This document shows, in pieces, positions 3,108 through 57,935 of a stretch of DNA of 64,000 nucleotides (the stretch's first letter is position 1; each line of letters starts with the position of its first letter). The stretch is from a virus: the IMG/VR virus record IMGVR_UViG_3300020048_000003; one strand, written 5' to 3'. Made by a program: the position numbers and the translations under genes. Below the pieces are notes generated by a model, which saw only the letters and a program-made list of their open reading frames with translations, did no database searches and was not told the origin of the DNA.

Positions 3108-3108
3108 A

Positions 3109-23244: not shown

Positions 23245-23246
23245 CT

Positions 23247-23537
23247 ATGGAATATGCTAATGTGAAGACAATCAAAGAGTTTCAAAAATTAAAAGGTGAT
23301 ATTGAAAAGCAACTTGTTGATTTTATGAAAAATTATGATCAATTTATTAAATCTGTCGCACCATCACATTGGAGAACAACAGGAACACATTATCATCATT
23401 TAAGAGATTTGAAAGGTGATTTGAAATATTTTACGCCTGTACAATTAAAAGATTTGGAGCATGAAATGGTTAGAGACCAAGTTTTAACGGATGAAGAAAA
23501 AGATTTTTATAATACAGCAAAAAAATACAATATATGA
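23247..23537 (+). CDS. Fam-A-like protein (C-terminal ...AKKYNI only)
   Basis: C-terminal motif. Confidence 0.55.
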   Translation: MEYANVKTIKEFQKLKGDIEKQLVDFMKNYDQFIKSVAPSHWRTTGTHYHHLRDLKGDLKYFTPVQLKDLEHEMVRDQVLTDEEKDFYNTAKKYNI

Positions 23538-23773
23538 AAATAAGAAAGTTTAACGAATCCTCCTTTATTCCATCTAATGATGAGGAAATGAAAAATTTTA
23601 TTTATGATATTATAAGTAGTTATGTTGATATTAGAACTGTTGAATATCACCCTGATGATTATGAAGCAGATCCTGAATCAGAAGAAAAAGCCGCTGAACA
23701 AATTATAATTGAATTAAAGAAATTAGGAGTAGATTTTGATTTTATCTATAATGTAAAAAAATATAATGTATGA
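23534..23773 (+). CDS. Fam-A-like protein (MKIRKFNE...KKYNV)
   Basis: Termini. Confidence 0.55.
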   Translation: MKIRKFNESSFIPSNDEEMKNFIYDIISSYVDIRTVEYHPDDYEADPESEEKAAEQIIIELKKLGVDFDFIYNVKKYNV

Positions 23774-23958
23774 AATATTTACAAAAATTTGAAGAATATA
23801 CTCCAGTTGAATTTGTTGCACCTTTTCGTGAGCATCCATCATATAAAAATGAAGAAAAAAAGAAGAAGCGAAAAAGAAAAGGTCAATCTGCTGAAGCACC
23901 TGTAATGGTTCCACCAAATCACACAAAAGATGCGATTTCTTTTAAAGGTAGCTCTTAA
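23770..23958 (+). CDS. Fam-A N-terminus (MKYLQKFEEY) with a Lys-rich C-terminus; no KYNL
   Basis: N-terminal motif only. Confidence 0.45.
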   Translation: MKYLQKFEEYTPVEFVAPFREHPSYKNEEKKKKRKRKGQSAEAPVMVPPNHTKDAISFKGSS

Positions 23959-25358
23959 AATCTCTTGAACCTAGTAATAAGTTTTTCTGTTGTTGATATT
24001 TGTTTAAATTTATCCTTAGTTCTATAAGAAGATTTCATTTCACCTCCTAAATCATAAAGTATTAAATTTTCGTGATTTTCATCCCAACCTAAATTACCCT
24101 GGTGAAAATCTGTATCATGTACACCTTTTAATTTAAGTTCTTTAACTATATTTAAGATTTTTGGATAAATATCAATTGCGATTTTCTCTACATCTTTAGG
24201 GTCTCTCTCATTTGCTAATATCCTTTTATTTTCTACTGAATTTGGTCTAAATAACACAAATTGAATATGATCTATCATATTTTTTTTGTCTTTAACGTTT
24301 TCATAATATTCAGGATTATTCTGAATCATACCTTTATAACAATGAATTGCATCTTTCTCATTTTCAGTTAATTCTCCTACATAATCCATTAATATATACC
24401 ATTTATAAACATTAGTATCTAATCCAATATTTTTGTTCAAAATATTGATTTCTCCCACGTTATAATAGTTGACTATATATTTAGACCATTTCTTATTTTT
24501 AGATAATTTATATGCAATATGTACTTCATTTTCATCCGAAGTTATTTTTAAAACTTTACCAGATTTTGTTTTATATGCAAATCCATATCCACCACCACCA
24601 AGATAACTATCAATTTCTTCACCTAAATCATCAGCGATTTCTAGTATTCTCTTTTTTATTGTAGGTGTTGGATAATTATATTCTTCTAATACGGAATATT
24701 TTTTCAATTTAACTTTTGGTTGTTTACCATATGGATCATATCTTTTTGTTATATCAAATAAGATTAACCTTGTATGATCATGATTCCAACCTAAATTACC
24801 ACCATGAAAATCACATTGTTCTATGTTATGTTTTTTTAATTCTTTTGCAATATTTTTAATATGAGGAATAAAACTTATAGCATTTTTTTTCATTTCATAA
24901 ATATCATACATACTTGAAAGTAGTGGTCGGTTTTGTTTAAGTTTAATAGTAGTAAAACTGTGATTGATATTATCTATTAATTCATCATCAAATGCACTTT
25001 TATAAAAAGATTTTGAAAATTGAAAAATAGGTTTAAAGACATAATCAATCATTACTTTTTCTTCTTTTGGTAATGGTTCAACGTAATCCATTAATATAAA
25101 ATACTTAAAGTCATTTGTTGTATTCTCTATTTCACCTACATTGTAATAATTTAGAATATATTTAAATAAATTTTTGTGTCTTGCCAACTTCTTTGCTATA
25201 ATGATTTCATTTGTATCATAAGTAAGTTTCAATACTCTTCCTGACTCAAGTGAAAAAACAACACCAAAATCACCTGAACCTATTTCTTCAATAAGTTTTT
25301 CTCCTAATTCATCGGCAATTTTAATTGCTAATTTTTCTGTTGCACTAAGAAATTTCAT
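23955..25358 (-). CDS. Tandem protein-kinase-like (PKL/APH-like) domain protein
   Basis: Two copies of a Gly loop plus VLK (IGSGDFGVVF...VLKL; LGGGGYGFAY..VLKI) and of DFH(G/Q)GNLGW, which resembles the HGDLHPGN catalytic loop. Confidence 0.5.
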   Translation of the reverse strand: MKFLSATEKLAIKIADELGEKLIEEIGSGDFGVVFSLESGRVLKLTYDTNEIIIAKKLARHKNLFKYILNYYNVGEIENTTNDFKYFILMDYVEPLPKEEKVMIDYVFKPIFQFSKSFYKSAFDDELIDNINHSFTTIKLKQNRPLLSSMYDIYEMKKNAISFIPHIKNIAKELKKHNIEQCDFHGGNLGWNHDHTRLILFDITKRYDPYGKQPKVKLKKYSVLEEYNYPTPTIKKRILEIADDLGEEIDSYLGGGGYGFAYKTKSGKVLKITSDENEVHIAYKLSKNKKWSKYIVNYYNVGEINILNKNIGLDTNVYKWYILMDYVGELTENEKDAIHCYKGMIQNNPEYYENVKDKKNMIDHIQFVLFRPNSVENKRILANERDPKDVEKIAIDIYPKILNIVKELKLKGVHDTDFHQGNLGWDENHENLILYDLGGEMKSSYRTKDKFKQISTTEKLITRFKRF

Positions 25359-25882
25359 AAATTATAATTATTTGCTGTTGATTTTAATTTATCAATTGTT
25401 ATATATTCCTCACAATATCCATCTTCTCTTTTTGGATGACCTTTTAATTTAAATGATATAAAACAACTATTTCCATCAAAAAGGTAACCAATACCTTCAA
25501 TTGTACCTTCAAATGGTTCCTGAGTTAATAAATCTATGAAACCACTAGAAATATATTTACCAGTAAGTTCTTTATTTAAGAAAATTTTGAAATGTTTTGG
25601 TGCGGCATATATTGACATCATGAAATCTTCCCAAAGTTTTTTGATGTTTATAATTATTTCATCTTCATCTTCTTGAAAATTTCTTTCTCTAACTAATGGA
25701 AGAAAATCTTCTTTATATAATTGTTTTTCAGATTTTTCATTATGATCCCAAGGTTCATCATCTTCTGGATCTATTGTACCGTTTTCAAACCCAGGCACAA
25801 CTTCAGGCTCATATTTTTCTGGTTCAAACATTCCAGGAAATTCATCTTTTATACTATCTTCAAAATATTTTAAATATATCAT
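25355..25882 (-). CDS. Fam-A small protein (MIYLKYFE...NNYNL)
   Basis: Termini. Confidence 0.7.
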   Translation of the reverse strand: MIYLKYFEDSIKDEFPGMFEPEKYEPEVVPGFENGTIDPEDDEPWDHNEKSEKQLYKEDFLPLVRERNFQEDEDEIIINIKKLWEDFMMSIYAAPKHFKIFLNKELTGKYISSGFIDLLTQEPFEGTIEGIGYLFDGNSCFISFKLKGHPKREDGYCEEYITIDKLKSTANNYNL

Positions 25883-26289
25883 AGGTTATATCTCTTTATA
25901 TTTTTAGAATATTCAATTTTCTCAACTGCTTGATTAAATTCCTCTTTTGTATTGAATTTTCTCACATAATCTTCACATACCCAACTATCATATTGTTCTT
26001 TTTTAAAAGAATTTGATATTATTGAACTTATAGATGCTTCTTTTATGTTTCTTTTTTGCTCCGGTGTTAATTCACATAAATGATGAATTAGAAACAATTT
26101 ATTATTTTCTTTTTTATCAAAATGACCAATATCTACGACAATTCCATATGTATTGTGCCAACATGCTTTTGTGTTTTTATCATTTCGTCCTGTCCATGTA
26201 TCTTCTATAACTACATAATCTCCTATATTAATATCAGTATTGAAAGATTCAAATCTTTTAATAAAACGCATAGAAAAGAAATCTCTCAT
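25879..26289 (-). CDS. Fam-A small protein (..FIKRFE...KRYNL), IGDYVVIED barrel
   Basis: Termini. Confidence 0.65.
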   Translation of the reverse strand: MRDFFSMRFIKRFESFNTDINIGDYVVIEDTWTGRNDKNTKACWHNTYGIVVDIGHFDKKENNKLFLIHHLCELTPEQKRNIKEASISSIISNSFKKEQYDSWVCEDYVRKFNTKEEFNQAVEKIEYSKNIKRYNL

Positions 26290-38498: not shown

Positions 38499-39020
38499 AT
38501 GAAACATTTAAAAACATACGAAGGAAGAGAATTAAATAAATATGAACGTAAGGTTATTTATAAACATTTAAATAAAAATGATTCTCTAAAATTAGAAGAA
38601 CATATTGAAAAATATGTTCTTGATAATAATATTATAGGTAAAATATCCAAATTAAAATTGAAAGATTATACTTCAAATTCTTTGGATTATGATTCTCTTT
38701 GGGAATCTGATATTATTTCATCTGGTATGTATGATGAACCAACAAATATTTATCGTGTTTGTGATGAATTTTGTTTTAATAATTGTGAGGTTGTTGGAAG
38801 AACAAATACACCAGCTGTACGAAATACACTTTCTGATATTTCAAAAAAATTATATAAAAAATATAATGTAAGAGATAAATTAAATAAACAACTTATAAAA
38901 CTATTAGAGAAAAATCCTCCAAATTATAGAGATTTTTATGAAACTTGGGAAGAAGAATTAACAAACGAAGTAAGATTAGCATGTCAATATATGCTGGATT
39001 CAGAAAATTATAATCTATAA
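38499..39020 (+). CDS. Fam-A protein (MKHLKTYEG...SENYNL)
   Basis: Termini. Confidence 0.7.
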   Translation: MKHLKTYEGRELNKYERKVIYKHLNKNDSLKLEEHIEKYVLDNNIIGKISKLKLKDYTSNSLDYDSLWESDIISSGMYDEPTNIYRVCDEFCFNNCEVVGRTNTPAVRNTLSDISKKLYKKYNVRDKLNKQLIKLLEKNPPNYRDFYETWEEELTNEVRLACQYMLDSENYNL

Positions 39021-39114
39021 TGAAATACCTTAAGAAAAAAATAAGTGCAAACAGATTAACGTCAAAAGAAAGAGTAGAGTTTGAATATCAAAGAAATATA
39101 AGGAAATATAATTT

Positions 39115-39579
39115 ATGAAATTTTTAAAAGTTTTTGAAGAATACAGAGTTTATAATCATAAACTATATATTGATCATGTTATGGAAGAAGAATTAAAAGT
39201 AGAAATTCAATATCCAGAAGATTCTATTGTTATACCAGAAAGTAAATATGATATTGATGTTATAGAATATTTCAAAGAAATATTTTTAGATAAATATATT
39301 ACATTTAAGAGTGTAGATACACCCAAAGGACACCCACAAATGCAAGGTTTTGTTTTAGATGTTGATCAACTTGCGTATCAAGATGAATTTTATATTAGAG
39401 TTAAATTAGCACAGGCAGTATATTCAGAATTTCCAGAGTGGCTTGGTCATAATAATTTAGATGATTGGTATTTAATAAATAATACAAAACCAGTACTTGT
39501 ACAACACTATGATGCTGATACTAAACCATTACATAAAGAAGTAGAATTTAAAAAAGAGGCAGGAAGATATAATTTATGA
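39115..39579 (+). CDS. Fam-A protein (MKFLKVFEEY...GRYNL)
   Basis: Termini. Confidence 0.7.
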   Translation: MKFLKVFEEYRVYNHKLYIDHVMEEELKVEIQYPEDSIVIPESKYDIDVIEYFKEIFLDKYITFKSVDTPKGHPQMQGFVLDVDQLAYQDEFYIRVKLAQAVYSEFPEWLGHNNLDDWYLINNTKPVLVQHYDADTKPLHKEVEFKKEAGRYNL

Positions 39580-40079
39580 AATATATTAAAACATTTGAAA
39601 ATAAAGAACTAAATCTTCATTTAATGATGTGTGATTTTTTATCTAAAATAAATGATAAAGAATATTTAGTTACTAGATTTTTTTATTATAGAGGTATGAC
39701 AGAGGGTAATACTTTAGCATTTAAAAGATATGAAAATTATCCCCGTGTTAATACATATCCTATTTTTTCAATTACATTTAAAGATGTAAATGACACAAAA
39801 TTACGAGGTGTTGCAAATAAGCCAAAGATGAAAGTTATTGTAAATTATGAATATGATATGGCTGGTGTTAAGGATGTTCAGTTCGTTACAATGTTGAAAG
39901 ACTTTATTGTTGATGTGTTTACAAAATATTCTTATTTTCATAAAAAGCGTGATAAATATTATAGAAAAGATTTTTGTAGTCATGATTTCTATATTAATAC
40001 ATCTGAAATTTCAAATATTATGAATGATTTTGAGAATGAATTTGATTTTTATGTTAATACAAGAAAATATAACTTATAA
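39576..40079 (+). CDS. Fam-A protein (MKYIKTFE...TRKYNL)
   Basis: Termini. Confidence 0.75.
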   Translation: MKYIKTFENKELNLHLMMCDFLSKINDKEYLVTRFFYYRGMTEGNTLAFKRYENYPRVNTYPIFSITFKDVNDTKLRGVANKPKMKVIVNYEYDMAGVKDVQFVTMLKDFIVDVFTKYSYFHKKRDKYYRKDFCSHDFYINTSEISNIMNDFENEFDFYVNTRKYNL

Positions 40080-40339
40080 TGAAATATATTAAAACATTTG
40101 AATCTGATAAATATACTTTTGGTGAGTATGTTATGTTTTTTAATAAGATGAAACGTTTAGATGAGTTAGATGGACTATTGTGGGACAAACTAGAGTTAGC
40201 AGAAATTCTTGCGTTAGATTCTGATAGAGATGAATATTATATTGAGATAAAAGAAGATGGTGATGAACTTTGGGTAGGTGCTGACCAAATTCGTAAATTG
40301 ACTGATTTTGAAAAAGATACATTAAAATATAATTTATGA
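40079..40339 (+). CDS. Fam-A small protein (MKYIKTFE...TLKYNL)
   Basis: Termini. Confidence 0.75.
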   Translation: MKYIKTFESDKYTFGEYVMFFNKMKRLDELDGLLWDKLELAEILALDSDRDEYYIEIKEDGDELWVGADQIRKLTDFEKDTLKYNL

Positions 40340-40653
40340 AACATATAAAAACATTTGAAAGTAGTTCTGATGATAGAAAAAAAGCCGAAGATGAATTTGT
40401 AGGAAAATTATATAAAATATATCCTACACATAATCCAAGTGAAATGATAGCTATAGCAAAATGTGTAAGTATATTAGGAATGCATAGTAATTGGGGTGAT
40501 TTTGAAGGTTATATTATTCACCCACCAATGTCTAAAGGTAGATTTTATGCAGATTCTGAATTTTTAAATGGAATTGGTAAAGAAAATGAAGTAAGTAAAG
40601 AAGATATTGAAGAATATGAATTATATAATACAATGAATAATTATAACCTATGA
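40336..40653 (+). CDS. Fam-A small protein (MKHIKTFE...MNNYNL)
   Basis: Termini. Confidence 0.75.
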   Translation: MKHIKTFESSSDDRKKAEDEFVGKLYKIYPTHNPSEMIAIAKCVSILGMHSNWGDFEGYIIHPPMSKGRFYADSEFLNGIGKENEVSKEDIEEYELYNTMNNYNL

Positions 40654-41150
40654 TAAAATTATTTGAATCTTATTCGTTAAAAAGTGATATAGAAGAACTT
40701 TCTAGTGCTATACTAGATTTATCTAAAAATGTTTTTAAAGATATTAAACCAAAACCTTTTGGTGTTTGCTCTTGGATAAGTATTCCTGTTTGTCAATTTT
40801 CACTTTATTATAATAGTCAAACAATATTTTATTGTATTATGGAAATATCTAAAGAAATGGATAATGAATTTGCAAGAAATCAATTTAACGGACAGATACC
40901 AGATGAATATTATACACAAGATATTACTATCAAAATAATTAGGCAATATCCTTTTAATACAAAGTTTATTGAACCTTTTTTTAACTATTTAAGATATATA
41001 GTATTATCAGTTAGTGAAGTTACAAATAAGAGGATATCTTCTACTAGTTTTATTAGTTCAATAAAACAGGAGAATGTTAAAGAAATTATATCAAAGTTAA
41101 ATATAGAAGATTATGAACTTTGGTTAGAAGCAAGTAAATACAATTTATAA
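40650..41150 (+). CDS. Fam-A protein (MIKLFESY...ASKYNL)
   Basis: Termini. Confidence 0.7.
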   Translation: MIKLFESYSLKSDIEELSSAILDLSKNVFKDIKPKPFGVCSWISIPVCQFSLYYNSQTIFYCIMEISKEMDNEFARNQFNGQIPDEYYTQDITIKIIRQYPFNTKFIEPFFNYLRYIVLSVSEVTNKRISSTSFISSIKQENVKEIISKLNIEDYELWLEASKYNL

Positions 41151-41318
41151 ATCAATCATCTGATTTTCAACTATCAAATATTGCATTTTTGTACCTTCAA
41201 AGATTATAGAACAATCTTTTTTCTTTGCTTTATCAAGGTTCTGATACATAAAAACTTTAGTAATTTTAAGTTTCTGTAAATCATCCAATTGGCTATATTT
41301 TTTAGTAGTTTTTTCCAT
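41145..41318 (-). CDS. Unlisted 57-aa ORF (MEKTTKKYSQLDDLQK...) with a promoter motif 3 nt upstream
   Basis: Hand translation; its TTA stop abuts the TAA of the convergent Fam-A gene. Confidence 0.35.
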   Translation of the reverse strand: MEKTTKKYSQLDDLQKLKITKVFMYQNLDKAKKKDCSIIFEGTKMQYLIVENQMIDL

Positions 41319-41334
41319 AGCACAAAGATAGACA
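41319..41334 (-). promoter_or_regulatory. Conserved promoter element (GTCTATCTTTGTGC) adjacent to the ATG
   Basis: gcacaaagatagac. Confidence 0.45.
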
Positions 41335-41381
41335 TTTTTTCTGACTTAAAAAATTAATTTTCATTTTTTATATATAATAAT

Positions 41382-42422
41382 ATGAAATATATTAAAGAGT
41401 ATAAAATATTTGAAAGAAAAGGAAATTATCAGTTATTTCATAAAACTAACGAATATGCTCTAAATCTTATTGTTAATAGTGGTTTTATAAAATGTGGTGG
41501 TGATTCAAATGATGATGAAGATGATTACAAATGGTGGAATTATGGATTAAGAAAAAATGTTTTTTCTGATTGGAAGCAAGATGATAAAAAATTCAAAACT
41601 ATCTCAGCGACAAGAAATTTAGATTATCTTTGGTTGCCAGCATTAGAATTAGATGTTGAAAAAATTTCAGATAAATATAGAATTGTACCATTTAGTGAGA
41701 ATCCAGATTATTATTTAGATTTTTATGGTGGTGATGATGGATTTGCTAGTAGTGGTGAAAAATATGGAAAAATGAAATCTAGAAAAAATCCTATATTACC
41801 ATTAAAAAATAAGAAGAAATTAACTAATTTTCAAAATATGATAAGATCAAAATCAAAAGATGCTGGTAAATTATTTTGGAGATTTAAGACAGATAAAGAT
41901 GTTATGGATTATGGTATAGCAGAAGAGTTAATTCTTACTGATAAATTAGATTTCGGAAAATATGTAAAAAGAGTAATTTTGAGAAAAGATTTTGGAAATG
42001 AAAATGAAAAATTAATTAAACTAATTAATAAAAAATATCCTAATGTTGAAGTTGTTGAAATTGATAGAAGAAATAGTGGTGGTTTCAATTATATGGATGT
42101 TAAAAGAGTATCTAAACAGAAAGAAAAAGAAAAAGAATTAGCATTACAAGAAAGCAAAAAACCTATACCAGAATATAAAAAAGGTGATTATGTTCATTTA
42201 GAAGATGATGAAACTTGGACAGTTTATCAAACCGCAAAAGTAATTAGTTTAAATTCAAATGTTGATTTACAAAATAATGATTATTATATAGAAGCATTTT
42301 TGAAACAAAATAATAAACCTGTTGAATTTTGGGTTGATGATTACGATATAGATAGAAAATCTACAAATGAAGAAATTGCAGAGTTAGAAATAATAAAAAA
42401 TGCAATTAAATATAATTTATGA
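41382..42422 (+). CDS. Fam-A large member (346 aa; MKYIKEYK...IKYNL)
   Basis: Termini; C-terminal STNEEIAELEII helix. Confidence 0.7.
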   Translation: MKYIKEYKIFERKGNYQLFHKTNEYALNLIVNSGFIKCGGDSNDDEDDYKWWNYGLRKNVFSDWKQDDKKFKTISATRNLDYLWLPALELDVEKISDKYRIVPFSENPDYYLDFYGGDDGFASSGEKYGKMKSRKNPILPLKNKKKLTNFQNMIRSKSKDAGKLFWRFKTDKDVMDYGIAEELILTDKLDFGKYVKRVILRKDFGNENEKLIKLINKKYPNVEVVEIDRRNSGGFNYMDVKRVSKQKEKEKELALQESKKPIPEYKKGDYVHLEDDETWTVYQTAKVISLNSNVDLQNNDYYIEAFLKQNNKPVEFWVDDYDIDRKSTNEEIAELEIIKNAIKYNL

Positions 42423-42814
42423 AATATATAAAATTATTTGAGAATCAAGATAATATTGATATTTGTAAAATGTTATTGAGTCACTTGACAAATACTTTTG
42501 AAGAAATTGGTTACGATTACAATAATTATCTTGTTTATGGTTTATATGAAACAGAATTTGATAAAAATAAAGAAAATTTATTCAAATTTATATATGATGC
42601 TCATACTAAACAATTTTCAATAAGATTATTTGATATGGCAGATGAAGTATTATTTATACCAGAATATTTTAAAACTATTACAGGATTAAAATTTCAAGAT
42701 ACTAAGTATTTTAATAGATATATTTATGATATTATAGATATTGATAAAGCAATTGAACAAATATCAAAAGAAGATTTTGAATTAAAATTTACATCAAATA
42801 AATACAATATATAA
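42419..42814 (+). CDS. Fam-A protein (MKYIKLFE...SNKYNI)
   Basis: Termini. Confidence 0.75.
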   Translation: MKYIKLFENQDNIDICKMLLSHLTNTFEEIGYDYNNYLVYGLYETEFDKNKENLFKFIYDAHTKQFSIRLFDMADEVLFIPEYFKTITGLKFQDTKYFNRYIYDIIDIDKAIEQISKEDFELKFTSNKYNI

Positions 42815-49062: not shown

Positions 49063-49186
49063 CTTTTATTAATTATTTTTTTATGTTTTCACATAGGAAT
49101 TCTATCTAATTCTAATATAATAAATTAATTGATTAAAGTTTATAAAATCAGTTTGATAATTAAATATATAGATAAAATAAATTTTT

Positions 49187-49534
49187 TTGATGAAAATAAA
49201 AAAGTTCAATCAAATTAACGAAGCATCTGAGGATGATGTTGATAAACATATAATTATAACGGTTAGTATGAAAGACGAATTCCAATGTACTTTAGCTGAT
49301 ATCAAAGAAACAACAGCTTATTGGAATCATTTAAAATATATACAAGATAAAAATTTTAATGAAACTGATGAAGAGATAGAAAGACAAGCTGTTTATTATG
49401 GATTAGAGGAATATTGTTATAATCAAGGTAAGGGTGGATTTTCTTATAATTTTGTAGATAATGCTGGCAATAAAATTGAAAATTTAGATACATATAGAGA
49501 ATTTATAAAAGATACAAAAAAATATAATATATGA
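49187..49534 (+). CDS. Fam-A protein (..KIKKFNQINE...TKKYNI)
   Basis: C-terminal motif; starts an 11-gene array. Confidence 0.65.
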   Translation: MMKIKKFNQINEASEDDVDKHIIITVSMKDEFQCTLADIKETTAYWNHLKYIQDKNFNETDEEIERQAVYYGLEEYCYNQGKGGFSYNFVDNAGNKIENLDTYREFIKDTKKYNI

Positions 49535-49818
49535 AAATTAGAAAATTTTTTGAGCAATATGAGTTAGATGTTGATGGTGATGGTGGTATAGCAGAAGAAT
49601 ATGTCAAATTAATAATATCAACATATATTGATAAACAACATTTGGAGCATGTTACTTTAGAAAAAGTGTATAGAGATGTTGTAAAAGGTGACGACTTAGA
49701 TGAATCTCAATGTGAAATAATAAGAGATGAATTAAAAATATACATTACATTTCTATTAAGATATGCTAAACAAATTAGAAAAATATTTGAAATAGACGCT
49801 GAGGATTATAACTTATGA
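49531..49818 (+). CDS. Fam-A-like protein (MKIRKFFEQYE...AEDYNL)
   Basis: Termini. Confidence 0.65.
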   Translation: MKIRKFFEQYELDVDGDGGIAEEYVKLIISTYIDKQHLEHVTLEKVYRDVVKGDDLDESQCEIIRDELKIYITFLLRYAKQIRKIFEIDAEDYNL

Positions 49819-50150
49819 AACATTTAAAATTATTTGAAAAAAAAGGAAAATTTGAAGTAGAAATTAAAGAATCACTAAAAAAGTTTTGTGGTGAATTTGG
49901 TTTTTTTGATTATGAATATAACTATTATACTTATACGAAGGTGACAAACATTTCATTTAGAATTACAGGTAAAATAAATCAAGAAAATGAAAAAAAATTT
50001 AATGAGGTACTTAATTTTATTAAAAATTATCATAATTGGGAAATAACACCATATATGAATACATTTCGTGTATTTTTTTGTCCGACAGATCCAGAACAGT
50101 TTTTAAATGATTTAGAAACTATTATATCAGCAAAAATTTATAATTTATGA
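49815..50150 (+). CDS. Fam-A protein (MKHLKLFE...AKIYNL)
   Basis: Termini. Confidence 0.7.
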   Translation: MKHLKLFEKKGKFEVEIKESLKKFCGEFGFFDYEYNYYTYTKVTNISFRITGKINQENEKKFNEVLNFIKNYHNWEITPYMNTFRVFFCPTDPEQFLNDLETIISAKIYNL

Positions 50151-50476
50151 GATATATTAAAACATTTGAGAAAAAATATGTAGAACCTTTTAGAAGAAAT
50201 AGAAAAAAAAATGGTCCGAAACCAAAATTTAATGTTGGTGATGAGGTTATTGTTATGTATGATTTAACACAATTTGGTTACCCATATGGGATCGTAAAAG
50301 GTGATATCGTTACAATAGTTGATTATTGGATAAATGCAAATGATGATATATCATATAAAATAGATAGTCCTAAACTTCGTGAGATAAAAAAAGGTAGAGA
50401 CATAGAATATGATATGTTTGATGAATTTCATTTCGCGTATGAATATGAAGAAGATGCAAATAAATATAATTTATGA
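50147..50476 (+). CDS. Fam-A protein (MRYIKTFE...ANKYNL), VGDEVIVMYD barrel
   Basis: Termini. Confidence 0.75.
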   Translation: MRYIKTFEKKYVEPFRRNRKKNGPKPKFNVGDEVIVMYDLTQFGYPYGIVKGDIVTIVDYWINANDDISYKIDSPKLREIKKGRDIEYDMFDEFHFAYEYEEDANKYNL

Positions 50477-50796
50477 AATATATTAAAACATTTGAAAAAA
50501 GATATAAACAAGAGGAGGATTTTGAAATTCCAGATGGAACTAAATTGTTGTGTGTTAGAAGTGATTACCATATGTTTAAGGTTGGTGATATTGTAGAAAT
50601 GAATTATTATAAAGCATATGGTGGTGTTGGATATTATTCTGGTATATCAAAAAATAATACAACTTATAGTGCTACGGTTATTGATGCAAATACAGTTCTA
50701 TTGGATAAATATCAAAGTACAGATGCGACTTTCACAACAGATGCTACAATAGAAGATTATAAATTAAGAAAAGCAACGGAGAAATATAATTTATGA
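50473..50796 (+). CDS. Fam-A protein (MKYIKTFE...TEKYNL), VGDIVEMNY barrel
   Basis: Termini. Confidence 0.75.
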   Translation: MKYIKTFEKRYKQEEDFEIPDGTKLLCVRSDYHMFKVGDIVEMNYYKAYGGVGYYSGISKNNTTYSATVIDANTVLLDKYQSTDATFTTDATIEDYKLRKATEKYNL

Positions 50797-51233
50797 AATA
50801 TATTAAAATGTATGAAATAAAGAGTTTAGAAAAAAGAACTGACATTTTTGCTGATGCTGTCAAAAATGATAAGAAAGCTTTGATTAATAAGATGATTGAT
50901 AATGATATTAATCAAAATGAAGGAGAATTTATATTAATAGCAGTGATTTATAATGATGAGAAGATTTTGAAAAAATTAATAAAAAAAGGCGTTGACTTAA
51001 ATGCATTAACTCAAGCAGGATATTCGCCATTAATTTTTACTGCTATTCAAGGTTTTCATAGTTGTATGAATACACTTATAGAAGCAGGTGCAGATTGGAA
51101 TATTATAGATGATAGTGGACATGATTTTTTAAGATATTTACCATCTTATTTAAGAAATAAAACAATAGAAAAATATCCAGAGCAATATAAAGAATATTTA
51201 TTTAGAAAAGAATCAGAAAAATATAACTTATGA
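50793..51233 (+). CDS. Fam-A protein with ankyrin repeats (MKYIKMYE...SEKYNL)
   Basis: KKGVDLNALTQAGYSPLIFTAIQGFHSCMNTLIEAGADWNIIDDSGHDFL is an ANK repeat pattern. Confidence 0.75.
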   Translation: MKYIKMYEIKSLEKRTDIFADAVKNDKKALINKMIDNDINQNEGEFILIAVIYNDEKILKKLIKKGVDLNALTQAGYSPLIFTAIQGFHSCMNTLIEAGADWNIIDDSGHDFLRYLPSYLRNKTIEKYPEQYKEYLFRKESEKYNL

Positions 51234-51562
51234 AATATATTAAAACATATGAAACTATAAATATTCCTTCATCACGACCGAGTGATGCGTGGCTTAATGT
51301 ATATACTGATTATAGAGTAGGTGACATTGTAAAAATTTGGAACGAATTTTATGCTGGTGAGATAGTTTATTTGTGCCGTTCATATGGCGGAAGATATACT
51401 AGTCATGATGTTAAAGGTATTATGAATTATGATGGTTCATTAAGAAATGGTGATATAAAGACGATAGATGAAGAATATATGAGAAAATTAGATCCTAATG
51501 AGTTGAAAGGATTTAAAGATTTGTTAAGTATGCACGATGATGTAAAAAAATATAATTTATGA
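51230..51562 (+). CDS. Fam-A protein (MKYIKTYE...VKKYNL), VGDIVKIWN barrel
   Basis: Termini. Confidence 0.75.
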   Translation: MKYIKTYETINIPSSRPSDAWLNVYTDYRVGDIVKIWNEFYAGEIVYLCRSYGGRYTSHDVKGIMNYDGSLRNGDIKTIDEEYMRKLDPNELKGFKDLLSMHDDVKKYNL

Positions 51563-51819
51563 AATATATTAAAATATATGAAATGAAAAAACAAAAACCA
51601 AAATTTTCTGTTGGTGAGAAGGTGGAATGTATTTTCTCTAGATGGGGAAATCTAAAGGAGGGTGAAATATATGAAATTGAAAGAATTACTTGGTCTAGAA
51701 GAAAAGGTAAATTTGTGTGTAAATTAAAAGGTGTTGGTGCAGATGATGAGTATTCTTATTTTTCAGAGAATAATTTTATTAGTGAACTTGAACATGATAT
51801 GAAAAATTATAACTTATGA
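51559..51819 (+). CDS. Fam-A protein (MKYIKIYE...MKNYNL)
   Basis: Termini. Confidence 0.75.
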   Translation: MKYIKIYEMKKQKPKFSVGEKVECIFSRWGNLKEGEIYEIERITWSRRKGKFVCKLKGVGADDEYSYFSENNFISELEHDMKNYNL

Positions 51820-52250
51820 AATATATTAAAACATTTGATAATACTAGTCAGAAATTAGAAGATATTAAAAAACTTCAATTGTCTAAACTTGCTATTTTTA
51901 AATTTTCAAAAAAAATAAACGAATTATTTCAAAAACATTATAATGTATCAACAATATTAAGAGAAGAAGATTCAAATCACCACCAAATAAAAAATAGATA
52001 TGATATATCTGATAGTGTTTTAAAAAGAAAAACATATTTTTCAATTTCAATTACACCTAATTATAAAATAGATATTTTTCCTCTTAGTGTAAGCAACGAT
52101 TTAGAAAAATTTTTTATAGAATTTTTTGATTTGGATTCACAAAATTATAGTATAAGAATATTCTGCACTTCAGAAGAATTGAATGATTATTGCGATATAA
52201 TTGTTGATGAATTTGATTTGTATGTTGCCACAAAAAAATATAACTTATGA
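51816..52250 (+). CDS. Fam-A protein (MKYIKTFD...TKKYNL)
   Basis: Termini. Confidence 0.75.
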   Translation: MKYIKTFDNTSQKLEDIKKLQLSKLAIFKFSKKINELFQKHYNVSTILREEDSNHHQIKNRYDISDSVLKRKTYFSISITPNYKIDIFPLSVSNDLEKFFIEFFDLDSQNYSIRIFCTSEELNDYCDIIVDEFDLYVATKKYNL

Positions 52251-52687
52251 AATATTTACATTTATTTGAAAATCAAAATGAATCATACCCTTATGAATGG
52301 GAAAATATTGTTCAAAAAGGTAACAAATTATATATTTATGTCTATGAATTAGCAAACGAAATGGAAAGTGATGTTGCTGGAAAAGGTAAAGAAGAATTAG
52401 TTAAAATGGAACATACTTATTATAAGTTAATTAGAAATTTATTAATTGGTAAAGTTATAACCTTTGACTGTGAAGAATGTTCAATTGAACATACTGGTAT
52501 TTGTGATACCGTAGGTTTTTCTTCTGGACGTTATGAAGAAGGATCCGATGATACATTTCAAGTTCAGTTTGTACATATATCAACAGAAGATATAGATGAC
52601 CAGCATAATATTGAAGATGAAGAAATAATTGTTCACTTAGACATTGATCCTGAAACTTATAGAACAGCAAATAAATACAATTTATAA
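52247..52687 (+). CDS. Fam-A protein (MKYLHLFE...ANKYNL)
   Basis: Termini. Confidence 0.75.
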   Translation: MKYLHLFENQNESYPYEWENIVQKGNKLYIYVYELANEMESDVAGKGKEELVKMEHTYYKLIRNLLIGKVITFDCEECSIEHTGICDTVGFSSGRYEEGSDDTFQVQFVHISTEDIDDQHNIEDEEIIVHLDIDPETYRTANKYNL

Positions 52688-52695
52688 TATAATTT

Positions 52696-53010
52696 ATGAA
52701 ATATATACTGGAAATGAAACATATGAAATCTGCAATTTATTATAGTGATGGATCCGCTTATTATGAGGACTATAATGACATGGATGAATTTGATTTAGAG
52801 ATAGTTAAAAATTATAAATTTAGAATAGGTGATTGTGTTAGAATAAACGACACTATTGTTGTATATAAAATATTAGCAGTTTCTCCTGACTCAAAGTATC
52901 AATATAAAATTGGAAGATACGATCAAGGATTTGGTACAAATAGAATAGAAGAAAAAGATTTAGTTCCAATATCAGACTTTGAAAGAAATATAATGAAGTA
53001 TAATTTGTAA
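52696..53010 (+). CDS. Fam-A protein (MKYILEMKHMK...IMKYNL), IGDCVRIND barrel
   Basis: Termini. Confidence 0.7.
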   Translation: MKYILEMKHMKSAIYYSDGSAYYEDYNDMDEFDLEIVKNYKFRIGDCVRINDTIVVYKILAVSPDSKYQYKIGRYDQGFGTNRIEEKDLVPISDFERNIMKYNL

Positions 53011-53296: not shown

Positions 53297-53608
53297 TTAT
53301 AAATTATATTTATCTGCAATATCTTCCATTTCAATTTTGAATCTTGTTGATTCCCAGCCCTTTGAAATTTCACCCGTTTCAATATTTTCAACATCAACTC
53401 TTAAAAAATCATTTTTAAGAAAAATATCTTCTCCTAATCTGTATATTTTTATGACTTTAAATTTATCTCCGATTTCTAATACATGCTTCACACTACCTTT
53501 TATAGTTGACATATATCCAGTATCTCTTACACAGACTACAGTATCACCAACACCATAATCAATAAGTTGACCTGTTGTATATAATTCAAATAATTTTAAA
53601 TATTTCAT
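53297..53608 (-). CDS. Fam-A protein on the minus strand (MKYLKLFE...ADKYNL), VGDTVVCVRD barrel
   Basis: Termini; first gene of a 6-gene inverted array. Confidence 0.75.
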   Translation of the reverse strand: MKYLKLFELYTTGQLIDYGVGDTVVCVRDTGYMSTIKGSVKHVLEIGDKFKVIKIYRLGEDIFLKNDFLRVDVENIETGEISKGWESTRFKIEMEDIADKYNL

Positions 53609-53611
53609 ATT

Positions 53612-53971
53612 TTATAAGTTATATTTTTGTCCTTCTATTGCAATATCTATTTCATCTTTGTTGGCAAACCTTATATAAGCATCAAACCCATTTGGTGTTT
53701 TACCACATTGAAGAATCCAATAATTATCTAGTACCCAACCAATTTTATTTAATTTTAAAAAACTCTTTTTAAGTTTAATAATTCCTTTTAATACTTCATC
53801 AAAAGTTCCTCTTGTGTTATGTGTCTCATTTTTTATACCATTTACTGTATATGTATATCTACTTAAATAATCTCTTTCACCTGGTGCGAATAAATCATCA
53901 GAATCATATTCTTGAATTTGAAGTCCGTGTTTAATCCATTCAACTTCTTCAAATAATTTTAAATATTTCAT
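53612..53971 (-). CDS. Fam-A protein (MKYLKLFE...GQKYNL)
   Basis: Termini. Confidence 0.75.
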   Translation of the reverse strand: MKYLKLFEEVEWIKHGLQIQEYDSDDLFAPGERDYLSRYTYTVNGIKNETHNTRGTFDEVLKGIIKLKKSFLKLNKIGWVLDNYWILQCGKTPNGFDAYIRFANKDEIDIAIEGQKYNL

Positions 53972-54321
53972 AAGTTATATTTATTTGTTTCTTCAAGAAA
54001 TTTGAATTTTTCAATTTCTTCTTCTGTTGCTGGTCTTAATATTTTTACATCTGACTTTACCTTTATAATTTCTCTCATACCATCTAAATCAAATATTTGC
54101 TCTATAAAACTTATCTTTGTATGTCCTTTTGCTTCTAATAATAATATTTTATAATAAAAACCATCAGCACCGTAATATTTACCAGTTGTAAATTTTTCTA
54201 ATTTCATTATACAATCAAGCATATCATTCTTATATCTCCAATATGTATTGTTTATAAAATCAGATAAAGATATTTCATCTGGCGTTTCTAAAACTATTTC
54301 AAATGTTTTAATATACTTCAT
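53968..54321 (-). CDS. Fam-A protein (MKYIKTFE...TNKYNL)
   Basis: Termini. Confidence 0.75.
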   Translation of the reverse strand: MKYIKTFEIVLETPDEISLSDFINNTYWRYKNDMLDCIMKLEKFTTGKYYGADGFYYKILLLEAKGHTKISFIEQIFDLDGMREIIKVKSDVKILRPATEEEIEKFKFLEETNKYNL

Positions 54322-54659
54322 AAGTTATATCTTTTTGCATCTTGTTTAAATTTGAATTCTTCAATTCTATCTTTAAATTTTTCAATTTCAGCAGGATAAG
54401 CATGTCTTATCCAACTATTTATTTTCCATGGGTCTGCATCATCAACAACAAAACTATATTGCCAACCTTTTAAATATGTCAAAGTATATTTTTTATTATA
54501 TTTTGTATGTTGCTTAATGCTAGTTATTTGTGCTGGTTCATATAGGACTAAATTTTTTAAATGTGTACCAACATTCACATCATCTAAATAAACCCAATCC
54601 CCAACATTGAATTGAGTTGAATTTTCAAAATTTTCAAATATTTTAAAATTAGTTATCAT
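54318..54659 (-). CDS. Fam-A protein (MITNFKIFE...AKRYNL), VGDWVYLDD barrel
   Basis: Termini. Confidence 0.7.
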   Translation of the reverse strand: MITNFKIFENFENSTQFNVGDWVYLDDVNVGTHLKNLVLYEPAQITSIKQHTKYNKKYTLTYLKGWQYSFVVDDADPWKINSWIRHAYPAEIEKFKDRIEEFKFKQDAKRYNL

Positions 54660-54976
54660 AAATTGTATTTATTTGCATGTGTAAATACCTCTATATCTTC
54701 TTTTTCTGATGAATATTTTAATATTTCATCACTATTAAACCAAGTTGGATTTGCAAAAGTATAGCTTCTATCAACACAATCCTCATCAAATTCTACTAAT
54801 ATTCTAAATTGTAATGGGATTTTATTAGTTATTTTAATATCAAGTACTTTTCCTATACTAACACTTAGATAACTATTATATAAAGGATCAAAATAATCCT
54901 CAGCATCAATCAATACATAATCACCAATCTCTAATTGTTTATCTACTTCCGCTTCAAATAATTTAATATATTTCAT
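54656..54976 (-). CDS. Fam-A protein (MKYIKLFE...ANKYNL), IGDYVLID barrel
   Basis: Termini. Confidence 0.75.
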   Translation of the reverse strand: MKYIKLFEAEVDKQLEIGDYVLIDAEDYFDPLYNSYLSVSIGKVLDIKITNKIPLQFRILVEFDEDCVDRSYTFANPTWFNSDEILKYSSEKEDIEVFTHANKYNL

Positions 54977-55437
54977 ATATTATATTTTTTTGCATCTTTT
55001 TTGATTTGAAAATTTTCAATATCTGATTTAATTTCTTCTTTTACTTTTTTTACTTTTTTAATAAATTTTTTTGTCTTGAAATCATAATTCTCATTCTCAT
55101 TAAATTCTATATTTTCAACCTGTTCAACAAATTTAGTAAAATCATCTGTTACAAATATAATATTACATTCGTGAACAAATAGAGTCAAAGGTTCTAAATC
55201 AGGTTCGTGTTCATTATTATGTGCTAATTCCTTTAATTCTTTTTCATTTAGATCTGATAATAGTTTTATCAAAAATACTTTTCTATCATCATAAATGTAA
55301 TCTGTATAATTTTGAACTACAATACCATACAAATGAAACCAAAAAACATTATCTTTACCGGTATTATCGCCTAAGATAACATATTGACCTTCTTTTATAT
55401 TGTATAGTTCAAATTCAAATAATTTTAAATATTTCAT
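54973..55437 (-). CDS. Fam-A protein (MKYLKLFE...AKKYNI)
   Basis: Termini. Confidence 0.75.
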   Translation of the reverse strand: MKYLKLFEFELYNIKEGQYVILGDNTGKDNVFWFHLYGIVVQNYTDYIYDDRKVFLIKLLSDLNEKELKELAHNNEHEPDLEPLTLFVHECNIIFVTDDFTKFVEQVENIEFNENENYDFKTKKFIKKVKKVKEEIKSDIENFQIKKDAKKYNI

Positions 55438-55482: not shown

Positions 55483-56379
55483 ATGATAATAAGATTTAAT
55501 AAGTATGAATTAGTTGAAGAAAAATTAAACATAAATTTCGGCAATTTAATAAATTGTGTGCTTATTTATTTTGCATTTTTTAATGGATTGGATGATACAA
55601 AGCAGATTAAAATATCGGAGGTTATTAAATATACCAAAAATTTTGATATTAAAAACAATGATAAAATAGTTAAAGACGCTCTTAACGATATGAAAGATAA
55701 AGTGTTAAGTGATGATAAAATTCTTAATAAGAAAGAAGTTGTTGCGTATTTGGATTCTATTGCAATAGTTAGAAAAAAAGATGATAAAATCTCAAAAGCT
55801 ATGTATGGACTTTCTACCTCAAATGGTACAAAAGCATCATCTTTTGCAATATCATTAGATAAAAGTGATTTTGGATATAATTGTGATATGATTTTCTTAG
55901 ATGATGATGCAGATTATAATGAAATTATACATGAATTAACTCATGTTATAAAAAATCACATGAAATTAAATACAAGTTTAGATTTTGAAAAATTATTTAA
56001 TTTTAATAAATCAGTTAGACAGCAAAAAAAAGATATAAAGGTTTTAACAGGTGGACTTTTTGAGTATTCAATAGATACAAAGAAAGAATCTGAATTTATA
56101 GAATATATACAGACACCATCAGAATTATATTCAAGACTAACAAGTTTCAAAATGTTTTTATATAAAAGAGGATATTTGAAAACTCCAAATGAAGACTTCT
56201 CACCACAGTTAATTAGAAGAATAACTAATGGTAGTTTGTATGCAGGTATGTCAGCAAGAGATAGACATTTATTTATAAATTCTGATTTCCTTGATATTTT
56301 ATTGTTTATTGACAGAACAAAAATTCATATGTTGGATCAATTTGTTCAAAATATTTCTAAAAATAATGATTTAGCATGA
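55483..56379 (+). CDS. Hypothetical protein with an HExxH motif (possible Zn-metallopeptidase)
   Basis: IIHELTHVI; no other diagnostic motifs seen. Confidence 0.4.
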   Translation: MIIRFNKYELVEEKLNINFGNLINCVLIYFAFFNGLDDTKQIKISEVIKYTKNFDIKNNDKIVKDALNDMKDKVLSDDKILNKKEVVAYLDSIAIVRKKDDKISKAMYGLSTSNGTKASSFAISLDKSDFGYNCDMIFLDDDADYNEIIHELTHVIKNHMKLNTSLDFEKLFNFNKSVRQQKKDIKVLTGGLFEYSIDTKKESEFIEYIQTPSELYSRLTSFKMFLYKRGYLKTPNEDFSPQLIRRITNGSLYAGMSARDRHLFINSDFLDILLFIDRTKIHMLDQFVQNISKNNDLA

Positions 56380-56843
56380 AGTACTTAAAATTATTTGAAG
56401 ACTATTCAAAAGAAGAAATACGAAATTTTCTGATAAAAGCACAACAAAATTCTCAAATTGATATTAAAACTAATATTGATAATTTAATGGACAATTTATC
56501 AAAAATAAAAAGACCAGAACTTGGAACTTTTGAATATTTCGTAAATAGCGAAGCTAGATTTATATCTGAAGGTGATTATAAACGAATGGGAGAATATATA
56601 GAAGGTTTTAAAAAATTAGGTATAGATGTATCAAAAGTTGAAAAACTCTATCCAAAATTGCTTAGATATAAGACAATTCAATTAAAAGAACTTGATAATT
56701 ACGAACATGGATATTCTCAAAAAGAGAAAGAAAAGAATTTAGATAGATTATATGATGAATTGAATGATTTAGAACCATATAAAGTTCAATTTGACGATGA
56801 AGTAAAAATATTAACAAAAAAAGCAAAACAACTTGATAACTAA
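56376..56843 (+). CDS. Fam-A N-terminal type protein (MKYLKLFEDY...) lacking the KYNL end
   Basis: Ends ..KQLDN* within a degenerate junction. Confidence 0.6.
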   Translation: MKYLKLFEDYSKEEIRNFLIKAQQNSQIDIKTNIDNLMDNLSKIKRPELGTFEYFVNSEARFISEGDYKRMGEYIEGFKKLGIDVSKVEKLYPKLLRYKTIQLKELDNYEHGYSQKEKEKNLDRLYDELNDLEPYKVQFDDEVKILTKKAKQLDN

Positions 56844-57309
56844 ATTATTTGAATTTGTGAGTGGATATATCATATCTTATGAAGATATTAAGAAAAAATT
56901 ATCTAATTATAAGAGTATTACATTTACAGAAGATAAAATTGAATTTATTTTTGATGAACTTTCTAAAGAAACAAATGGTGAATGCTATTATCAATGGAAT
57001 TTAGATAAAATGGTGAACCTCTTTGAGAATTATATAATTAGTTTTTATAAATATAATAGTGATACTGAATATTGGAAAACAGAACCAAAGAAAGAGGATT
57101 TTATCATAACTGATCAAATTATGACAATGACATATAAAAAACTTTTTAGAAAATCTCCCATAAAGTTAGGAACAGGAACTGTTAATATTGAATATTATGA
57201 TAAAAATAGTTATAAAGCATTTAATGTTATAATAGATAAGACTAAACCATTTACAGTTTATATTGACGAAACTACTTTTATAAGAGATGCTGATAAATAT
57301 AATTTATAA
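56833..57309 (+). CDS. Fam-A C-terminal type protein (..ITKLFEF...ADKYNL) with no ATG (TTG start or frameshifted junction)
   Basis: The junction is 'ttgataactaaattatttgaa' instead of 'ttatgaaatatataaaattatttgaa'. The ORF starts at a TTG and overlaps the upstream gene by 11 nt in the +1 frame. Confidence 0.5.
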   Translation: MITKLFEFVSGYIISYEDIKKKLSNYKSITFTEDKIEFIFDELSKETNGECYYQWNLDKMVNLFENYIISFYKYNSDTEYWKTEPKKEDFIITDQIMTMTYKKLFRKSPIKLGTGTVNIEYYDKNSYKAFNVIIDKTKPFTVYIDETTFIRDADKYNL

Positions 57310-57403: not shown

Positions 57404-57618
57404 TTTTCATCATGTTTTTGCTCAGTAATTTTATGAACGAGTGTCAATATACCCTCAATAGCATGTTCTCTTCTTGATTGACTTAGAGTTTCTTCCATTT
57501 CTAATACTCTATTTATGAGAAACGCAATTTGAACAATGTTTCCTGTTTCAATTAAACTTGAACCAACAAAAATTTCAAGTAGGTTTGTTATTTCTTCCAT
57601 TCTATTACTGACTTTCAT
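57388..57618 (-). CDS. Hypothetical small protein
   Basis: 76-aa ORF; its 3' end overlaps the TTGCCGG repeats. Confidence 0.45.
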   Translation of the reverse strand: MKVSNRMEEITNLLEIFVGSSLIETGNIVQIAFLINRVLEMEETLSQSRREHAIEGILTLVHKITEQKHDENETGN

Positions 57619-57935
57619 ATATTATATTTTCTACATTCATATTCAAATTTCAAATCCATTGTGTACTTATCAAAATCTAAAATAGGTTCCCATTCATCTT
57701 CTGTTTCTTTAAACTTAGTATAAGTTGTTTCCCCTTTATGATGTCTACCAGTTGTAGAATAATGACCATAAGGAATTAAATCTGATGGTTCGCACCATAC
57801 TACCTCAGATTCGTGAATAAAGGTAACTCTATCAACCCAATAGTATGAGCGGTGAGCCGTTATACTCATATCTATTTTTGAATACCAGTATCTACCACCC
57901 CATTTATTTTGCCAATATGTTTTATCTTCTTCCAT
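57615..57935 (-). CDS. Fam-A-like protein (C-terminal ...ECRKYNI)
   Basis: C-terminal junction motif. Confidence 0.55.
   Translation of the reverse strand: MEEDKTYWQNKWGGRYWYSKIDMSITAHRSYYWVDRVTFIHESEVVWCEPSDLIPYGHYSTTGRHHKGETTYTKFKETEDEWEPILDFDKYTMDLKFEYECRKYNI

Follow-up and report, generated by a model that had tools for sequence, protein, structure and literature searches.

The 64,000-nucleotide stretch of viral DNA in IMG/VR record IMGVR_UViG_3300020048_000003 (hereafter the window; ~25% G+C) carries at 49190-53010, on the plus strand, 11 small genes in tandem whose products begin and end alike and differ in between. The question raised by this locus is what the shared ends are for. A first-pass annotation had proposed that the N-terminal octapeptide is a cleavable targeting signal, analogous to the capsid-targeting sequence (CTS) of the phage T4 internal proteins and removed after a conserved glutamate. 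We found that both ends are conserved as protein, and we consider it most likely that they are address labels, read at the protein level, on a very large set of binding proteins. The destination with the most support would be the prohead, from which the proteins would be injected, a reading that we hold tentatively and at somewhat less than an even chance.

The 11 genes, which we term Fam-A, encode 86-146 aa, lie head-to-tail, and are mostly coupled to their neighbours by ATGA stop/start overlaps. The array, with the promoter-like motif of class A (described below) that precedes it, is composed as follows:

49164..49174, plus strand: class A promoter-like motif ATATATAGATA, 15 nt upstream of the array's first ATG
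49190..49534, plus strand: Fam-A gene, 114 aa, first of the array, variant N-terminal end MKIKKFNQ, C-terminal end KYNI
49531..49818, plus strand: Fam-A gene, 95 aa, MKIRKFFE ... DYNL
49815..50150, plus strand: Fam-A gene, 111 aa, MKHLKLFE ... IYNL
50147..50476, plus strand: Fam-A gene, 109 aa, MRYIKTFE ... KYNL, core of the VGDxV (SH3-like) type
50473..50796, plus strand: Fam-A gene, 107 aa, MKYIKTFE ... KYNL
50793..51233, plus strand: Fam-A gene, 146 aa, MKYIKMYE ... KYNL, ankyrin payload (Pfam Ank_2, 2.1e-9)
51230..51562, plus strand: Fam-A gene, 110 aa, MKYIKTYE ... KYNL, SH3-like core
51559..51819, plus strand: Fam-A gene, 86 aa, the minimal member, MKYIKIYE ... NYNL
51816..52250, plus strand: Fam-A gene, 144 aa, MKYIKTFD (Asp8) ... 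KYNL
52247..52687, plus strand: Fam-A gene, 146 aa, MKYLHLFE ... KYNL
52696..53010, plus strand: Fam-A gene, 104 aa, last of the array with no coupled gene downstream, degenerate N-terminal end MKYILEMK, C-terminal end KYNL

All 11 proteins end in YN[LI], and nine begin with an octapeptide of the type M[KR][YH][IL]K. Glutamate occupies position 8 in eight of them, with Q, D and K in the genes starting at 49190, 51816 and 52696, so the description of this residue as strictly conserved, and of the octapeptide as invariant, was too strong for this array. The residue is nearly constant on a wider view, in 31 of the 32 motif-bearing window members and in 142 of 145 metagenomic relatives. Position 6 had been given as L or T; both occur, together with M, I, V, A and K, and the 145 relatives had T in 92, K in 15 and L or I in 26 (~18%). 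Identical copies of the 50473..50796 protein are on record in a 286,618-bp JGI contig and a 209-kb ENA contig.

The gene set with shared ends is real and larger than was first noticed. The window holds 49 Fam-A genes (19.6 kb, or 30.6% of its length) in arrays on both strands, and a fiftieth is truncated by the window start; 31 of 48 Fam-A junctions are ATGA overlaps. Genes ending in YN[LIV] numbered 48, against 0.12 expected from amino-acid composition, and 32 genes carried the N-terminal motif, against 0.0009 expected. The proteins are acidic, with a median isoelectric point (pI) of 5.3 compared with 9.0 for the window's other small open reading frames (ORFs). The remaining Fam-A loci are:

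1..3851, plus strand: array of 11 Fam-A genes and a twelfth cut by the window start, including two with T4-CTS-like N-terminal ends, MRTYENFITD (742) and MRTYENFIEN (1098)
5726..6127, minus strand: isolated Fam-A gene, C motif only
22861..23958, plus strand: four Fam-A-type genes in an operon that begins with a NUDIX gene (22277), itself preceded by a class A motif at 22246-22260
25355..26289, minus strand: two Fam-A genes, class A motif at 26304-26316 (minus strand)
34807..37350, plus strand: four Fam-A genes including a 457-aa member, class A motif at 34776-34789
38499..42814, plus strand: eight Fam-A genes and a 32-aa mini-ORF, class A motifs at 38453-38466 and 41364-41377
53297..55437, minus strand: six Fam-A genes, class A motif at 55445-55457 (minus strand)
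56376..57309, plus strand: two Fam-A-type genes, that at 56376 with the N motif only and that at 57010 with the C motif only
57615..57935, minus strand: Fam-A gene, C motif only

The mini-ORF (39020-39118, plus strand, 32 aa, MKYLKKKISANRLTSKERVEFEYQRNIRKYNL) has both end motifs and no payload and is coupled to both neighbours; it could be either a decayed Fam-A member or an "empty" cassette.

The N motif, MKY[IL]K[TLK][YF]E, spans 8 residues at the extreme N-terminus. The C motif, [FLIY]-[ED]-[FLY]-x-x-[DNE]-[AT]-x-K-Y-N-L, spans 12-14 residues at the free carboxyl end; the first-pass annotation had rightly stated that the conserved C-terminus lacks a T4 analogue, and the conserved stretch comes to about 12 residues, not four. 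Among window members Y-3 and N-2 were 100% conserved and every core residue far less so. Synonymous codons at the conserved positions followed background usage, with ATT 11 and ATA 10 at the conserved Ile, TAT 40 and TAC 8 at Tyr-3, AAT 35 and AAC 13 at Asn-2, and GAA 27 and GAG 4 at Glu8, while non-synonymous changes within the motifs were rare and conservative (I/L, F/Y, K/R). The first genes of arrays retained the MKYIK N motif, and KYNL was kept in eight C-motif genes that lack a following gene within 30 nt. At -3 of coupled ATG codons stood T or C, the favourable base in Bacteroidetes being A. Both end motifs are thus maintained by selection on the protein and not on the DNA junction.

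Between these ends the proteins are indeed hypervariable, as had been claimed: when the end-trimmed cores of window members were compared, only 3 of 1,176 pairs gave a BLASTP match at E<1e-3. About 14 window members share a weak "VGDxV" core resembling an SH3 or chromo-barrel domain. The payload types identified were ankyrin, leucine-rich repeat (LRR)-like repeats, DnaJ-type zinc ribbons, an SH3-like barrel, and SH3-like and ankyrin domains combined. These are binding modules, and domain scans of members identified no enzyme domain among them. Pfam and PHROGs scans of 20 members returned ankyrin and weak matches to families of unknown function only, and scans of 10 larger members returned only a sub-threshold DnaJ zinc-finger match and a DMP19-like match. 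No significant Pfam or PHROGs match spanned the terminal motifs; matches were confined to payload domains.

We examined AlphaFold2 (AF2) models of two members. In the model of the 86-aa protein (51559; mean predicted local distance difference test score, pLDDT, 74), residues 1-10 had a pLDDT of 53 and no secondary structure, the C motif formed a strand (73-75) and a helix (76-83), and the core was a chromo-barrel/Tudor/SH3-like barrel with its best structural matches among chromo-barrel and Tudor folds. In the model of the ankyrin protein (50793; mean pLDDT 90.9), residues 1-7 fell below 50 and the C motif closed a long helix (129-143). Because the octapeptide is disordered in both models and is joined to the first strand of the core by a linker of variable length, it behaves like a free linear tag carried by unrelated folds and part of neither modelled payload. 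An intramolecular Lys-Asn isopeptide staple built from the invariant Lys, Asn and Glu seems unlikely, as the modelled N-terminal end is disordered and the C-terminal end helical, and the two do not form paired strands.

Relatives of Fam-A carry "hypothetical protein" labels in their source databases. A word-indexed protein search with one member returned three proteins only, and the larger set was reached by exhaustive profile search. A profile of the SH3-like subfamily matched 1,354 metagenomic clusters at E<=1e-3, and the best 145 short matches nearly all had the form MKY[IL]K[TLK][YF]E ... KYNL. The pattern of the gene junctions was present in 43 IMG/VR contig stretches, all of 21-30% G+C, and matched once in 596 Gb of bacterial and archaeal genomes. 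That sole match from a cellular collection (L044, CAYVSY010000054.1, 2220-2626) lies on a 5.7-kb contig of 25% G+C that carries Fam-A genes and was placed in the bin of a Muribaculaceae metagenome-assembled genome; the contig is probably phage sequence misplaced in that bin. A literature search for the motif strings and for paralog families of huge phages found no description of Fam-A, and megablast with 18 kb of window sequence gave no match among GenBank phages.

The portal proteins of Fam-A-related contigs matched that of a 735-kb phage (LR756501) at 62%, those of other Mahaphages at 47-49% and those of Lak phages at 32%; Fam-A was not found in the 41 kb around the LR756501 portal. Al-Shayeb et al. 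assign the Mahaphage clade to Bacteroidetes hosts (PMC7162821). In our reading Fam-A is a very large family with fast turnover, made up of small and mostly acidic proteins and belonging to huge phages of the Mahaphage type, for which Bacteroidota hosts are predicted. When phages with portals 85-97% identical were compared in pairs, non-Fam-A genes had a median identity of 73%, whereas the best Fam-A matches reached ~31%, and any match at all was found for 27 of 48 Fam-A genes versus 563 of 681 others. These turnover figures are consistent with rapid diversification.

Two promoter-like motifs separate the genes of the window. The class B, or host-type, motif C[CG][GC]TAHHTTTG[CT], or TCC[GC]TAHHTTTG[CT] in a longer form, has nine intergenic copies, against 0.27 expected, at 5694-5706, 6748-6760, 10686-10698, 29530-29542, 45931-45943, 58794-58806, 59083-59095, 60187-60199 and 63588-63600. 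Several of them lie only 3 nt before an ATG, which suggests leaderless transcripts. TAHHTTTG is the -7 element of Bacteroidetes sigma A (PMC6847099), so this motif supports a Bacteroidota host, and it marks a gene class distinct from Fam-A: among window genes with an upstream region it precedes none of 10 Fam-A genes and six of 43 others. The class A motif, also intergenic, consists of a run of T and then AATATATA[AG]. In related loci it precedes the portal gene in 27 of 28 cases and the protease gene in 16 of 20, with a variant before the capsid gene, and in the portal loci it also precedes 15 of 21 Fam-A genes that have an upstream gap. In the window it stands before six of the 10 Fam-A genes with an upstream gap, compared with five of 43 other genes and 5.9% of shuffled upstream regions. 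Because the class A motif is shared and no host-type motif precedes Fam-A, the Fam-A genes are probably co-expressed with the head genes. Such timing would be unexpected in proteins of host takeover, except where these serve the next infection.

The head genes themselves were found in related contigs. One of these, L006, carries on one strand two Fam-A genes, a 254-aa ORF, a T4-type portal gene (PF07230, 214 bits), an acidic scaffold-like protein and a Peptidase_S77 protease (30.8 bits; cutoff 27) whose catalytic-region motifs align with T4 gp21, S77 being the family of gp21. In 52 loci retrieved by their portal the order was portal, scaffold-like protein, 790-aa protease fusion and gp23-like capsid protein, and Fam-A junctions are carried by at least four of the contigs concerned; head module and Fam-A were seen together in L006 and in the contigs of L091, L081 and L063. 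A conserved 124-aa ORF upstream of the portal was suspected of being a gp55-like late sigma factor; it had no match in Pfam or among solved structures and was not used as evidence. The 790-aa fusion contains ~14 tandem 14-residue scaffold-like repeats, Y[SAT]EY[IL]AE[NH]LDxxIx, as in the following two:

L091, 12320-14692: protease-scaffold fusion, repeats at 13200-13689
L102 (LR756501, the 735-kb phage), 21945-24368: protease-scaffold fusion with the same repeats

The cleavage-site rule of gp21 is [LI]xE. The repeat unit Y[SAT]EY[IL]AE contains a site of this type and nearly equals YQEFIAE of the T4 CTS, which suggests that the T4 CTS is a mimic of the scaffold repeat. On a position-specific scoring matrix (PSSM) of the repeat, the T4 CTS (IPII) scored -2.3, above the 99th percentile of random windows. 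The proteases of T4, phiKZ and SPN3US all cut after Glu (PMC5694885).

We propose the following explanation. Each Fam-A protein would begin with a flexible peptide of 8 residues, continue with an unrelated payload (of binding type in most cases that can be identified) and close with a 12-14-residue C-terminal strand-helix motif, the two ends being short docking peptides that recruit every payload to one common phage-encoded partner. That partner would most likely be the core of the assembling prohead, because the promoter-like motif is shared with the head genes and because the related contigs encode a T4-type portal, a scaffold and a gp21-family protease. The proteins would be made late, packed into the head and carried with the DNA into the next host cell, where their payloads would bind host proteins such as defence factors. 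The C-terminal motif may provide a second contact, for instance with the capsid interior, or act in retention or ejection. On this sequence-based reasoning Fam-A is a probable arsenal of packaged effectors. Trimming after Glu8 by the S77 protease is the weakest step of the proposal, and we regard it as doubtful.

Several results weigh against delivery to the prohead. The head module, prohead protease included, was seen in related Fam-A contigs and not in the window, so that the protease that the first-pass annotation had proposed looking for is present in the phage group, as a member of the gp21 family, and not among the genes beside the array. Over the whole window the class A motif is only modestly enriched (nine matches, nearly all intergenic, against 3.3 expected), and its late action is inferred from the genes that lie downstream of it. 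The N-terminal ends of Fam-A scored no better on the scaffold-repeat PSSM than other N-termini (medians -24.2 and -24.1, p=0.62), and we rejected the octapeptide as a copy of the repeat; by eye, a likeness to the CTS is seen only in the rare variants at 742 and 1098. Among 1,656 ORF N-terminal ends, the one that matched the repeat best belonged instead to a 294-aa protein (L019 4027-4911, minus strand) starting MKNITKYSEFLTE, which, with its homologue starting MMNKITTYSTFLFE (L036 8339-9217, minus strand), is a candidate for a genuine CTS-bearing head protein. Cleavage after Glu8 fits [LI]xE poorly, because position 6 (P3) is mostly T; an L-F-E type of site is present in ~18% of members, and the majority form T-[YF]-E does not fit. 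Fam-A has a second, equally conserved motif at the C-terminus with no T4 counterpart, and its median pI of 5.3 contrasts with 9.0-9.7 for T4 IPI-III. The ends gave no convincing sign of varying together: mutual information between N- and C-terminal positions reached at most z=3.5 over 96 tests, and the sole covarying pair was positions 6 and 7, with each other. The nearest genomes, moreover, are metagenomic Mahaphages and Lak phages, none of them cultured. The proposed analogy with the T4 CTS is supported in part: a short N-terminal peptide is shared by unrelated cores, and the mismatch to the scaffold repeat and the acidic pI speak against it.

The main rival to prohead delivery is a hub outside the virion: the common partner of the ends would be, for example, a phage chaperone, a compartment built by the phage, or an AAA+ unfoldase or protease controlling when the proteins are turned over, and Fam-A would do its work late in infection, within the cell that produces it. 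We consider this possible, though on balance unlikely. It would account well for ends that look like tags, disordered or helical, on unrelated folds; for their strict placement at the first and last residues, which suggests recognition of free termini; for acidic payloads unlike internal proteins embedded in DNA; and for an octapeptide that does not match the scaffold repeat. The window also encodes an 809-aa vault-like protein with Major Vault Protein (MVP) shoulder and SPFH similarity. However, no candidate partner was identified, the Fam-A genes of several relatives are interspersed with the head module, and at least 100 fast-diversifying binders made only alongside head genes are harder to explain by action in the cell that produces them. 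The vault-like protein (30777-33206, minus strand) matched the MVP shoulder (1.3e-27), a Vault_3 repeat and SPFH/Band-7, and shares 51-52% identity, across 97-98% of its length, with proteins of LR756500 and LR756501 (462-kb and 735-kb phages).

It is improbable that the ends are structural remnants of an ancestral fold, with Fam-A an ordinary paralog expansion in which only the terminal elements can still be recognised. An SH3/chromo-barrel-like core is shared by the ~14 window members and by more than 1,300 metagenomic clusters, and the C motif supplies the last strand and helix of that core. The same ends, however, are found on ankyrin, LRR-like and zinc-ribbon payloads, the N-terminal peptide is disordered in both models, and Y-3 and N-2 are far more conserved than anything in the core. 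In LR756500, too, the N motif is joined to a different C-terminal end, and because MKYIKEYEEF is paired there with NADDFGFFDN, the N motif is older than the C motif and separable from it. The LR756500 locus (L048, 11706-15077) comprises four tandem genes with the N-terminal end MKYIK[EG]YE[ED]F; three share the C-terminal end NADDFG[FM][FL]DN and two carry leucine-rich repeats. This DDF-type end resembles the C-terminal end of the clade's scaffold-like protein (DDIDDFINTI).

Display on the virion surface, in which the ends would fix variable binding domains to the exterior of the capsid or tail, much as decoration proteins are placed, and broaden adhesion, we judge quite improbable. The arrays share their promoter-like motif with head genes and the payloads include repeats of binding type (ankyrin, LRR, SH3-like), but ankyrin and chromo-like domains are typical of intracellular targets, the scanned members had no Ig-like or carbohydrate-binding domains in Pfam or PHROGs, and it is hard to see the use of a particle on which more than 100 proteins compete for one site. 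There is only a slim chance that the ends form a two-part cargo code for a phage compartment other than the capsid, for example a shell of the 809-aa vault-like protein; were it so, the phage would sequester or deploy a library of at least 100 host-binding proteins inside the infected cell. The weakest explanation, a DNA or RNA boundary signal (translational coupling, a TATAAT promoter or recombination handles), can draw on the frequent ATGA overlaps and on AT-rich junctions in which the majority Tyr-Asn codons, TAT-AAT, together spell TATAAT, but we give it almost no credence, and the rival named in the first-pass annotation, that such an element fully explains the conservation, fails: variation at synonymous sites is at the background rate, array ends and non-overlapping junctions still have both motifs, and changes are conservative in the protein and distant in the codon (TTA to ACA at position 6, I to L, F to Y). 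We also rejected a promoter in the Tyr-Asn codons, since synonymous variants break TATAAT, it lies only 2 nt from the ATG, and it is not used by sigma A of Bacteroidota (PMC6847099), the inferred host phylum; an optimised context for translation initiation was rejected on the T or C at -3.

The window has other features that stand apart from Fam-A. A second family defined by a terminal motif comprises ~20 small, mostly basic ORFs with unrelated bodies and no shared N-terminal end, which finish in (I)RK(E)KL(K)K(L/I)(N)xx; most lie on the minus strand, away from the Fam-A arrays, and a like gene is present in L006 (3503-3763). Their positions and those of further features are:

7463-13161, 18546-18788, 27979-28497, 33275-34298, 37347-38156, 47101-47716, 48178-48510 and 63611-63973: RK-end family
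45947-46438, plus strand: stand-alone Peptidase_C39 domain (4.5e-13), 163 aa, directly behind a host-type promoter motif; Fam-A proteins lack a double-glycine site
57310-57387: G+C-rich direct repeat, TGCCGGATAT three times and then AAATTGCCG 50 nt on, in intergenic DNA that is otherwise AT-rich and follows a Fam-A gene
15879-21347 and 42846-44057: surface-sugar genes, namely a GDP-mannose 4,6-dehydratase, a glycosyltransferase-methyltransferase fusion, and a fusion of a response-regulator receiver with a bacterial sugar transferase

Elsewhere the window encodes an RNA ligase, two DNA methyltransferases, a radical SAM enzyme, and LemA and TPM-domain proteins.

Should the ends serve as packaging labels, no known arsenal of host-binding proteins that are made in advance and injected would come close to Fam-A in size, with dozens to hundreds of packaged proteins per genome where T4 has three or four. 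Effectors, anti-defence factors likely among them, could then be sought in metagenomes by a simple rule of sequence, and more than 1,300 clusters can already be retrieved. The principle of T4 capsid targeting, by which foreign proteins are loaded into heads today, would be extended to a two-ended code. The CTS-like scaffold repeat of Mahaphages suggests in addition that targeting sequences arise as mimics of the scaffold. Whether or not the head is the partner, a linear-motif address on unrelated folds at this scale is undescribed for phages.

The closest comparison is with T4. Its internal proteins IPI-III and Alt are likewise unrelated small proteins that share only a ~10-residue N-terminal peptide, and in both systems content is hypervariable between close relatives. 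The T4 CTS (AF158101: MKTYQEFIAE, MKTFKEFTST) and the Fam-A octapeptide have in common K2, a hydrophobic position 4, F7 and a Glu, and the Fam-A variants MRTYENFITD and MKTFEKFIEKE are near copies of it; the phage groups share the S77 protease family, the T4-type portal and the gp23-like capsid protein. They differ in number, with at least 49 Fam-A members per 64 kb compared with 3-4 internal proteins in T4, and in the Glu, which is at position 8 in Fam-A and at 10 in T4, with a P3 residue that in Fam-A is mostly Thr. Alt, also packaged, has a pI of 6.0.

Other giant phages provide a second parallel. The SPN3US head holds a paralog family B of 20 members, and this family and the phiKZ inner-body proteins are large, lineage-specific sets of head paralogs in phages with proteases that cut after Glu; the diverged paralogs gp53 and gp54 are noted to have identical N-termini (PMC5694885). 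Unlike Fam-A, the SPN3US and phiKZ head paralogs are larger and homologous along their whole length, their propeptides often exceed 100 residues, and they have no conserved C-terminal tag; PHROGs gave no sequence similarity between them and Fam-A. Beyond phages, the cargo-loading peptides of encapsulins and the encapsulation peptides of microcompartments are short and terminal, attached by flexible linkers, and bring unrelated cargo into a protein shell. These systems use one terminus and few types of cargo, whereas Fam-A has both termini and hundreds, and no encapsulin or microcompartment shell gene was seen with Fam-A. In logic, though not by homology, Fam-A may also be likened to the effectors of eukaryotic pathogens with RxLR or PEXEL host-targeting motifs, which rely on other machinery; Fam-A lacks a signal peptide, but those too are huge, fast-evolving repertoires that share a short N-terminal motif, cleaved in the case of PEXEL.

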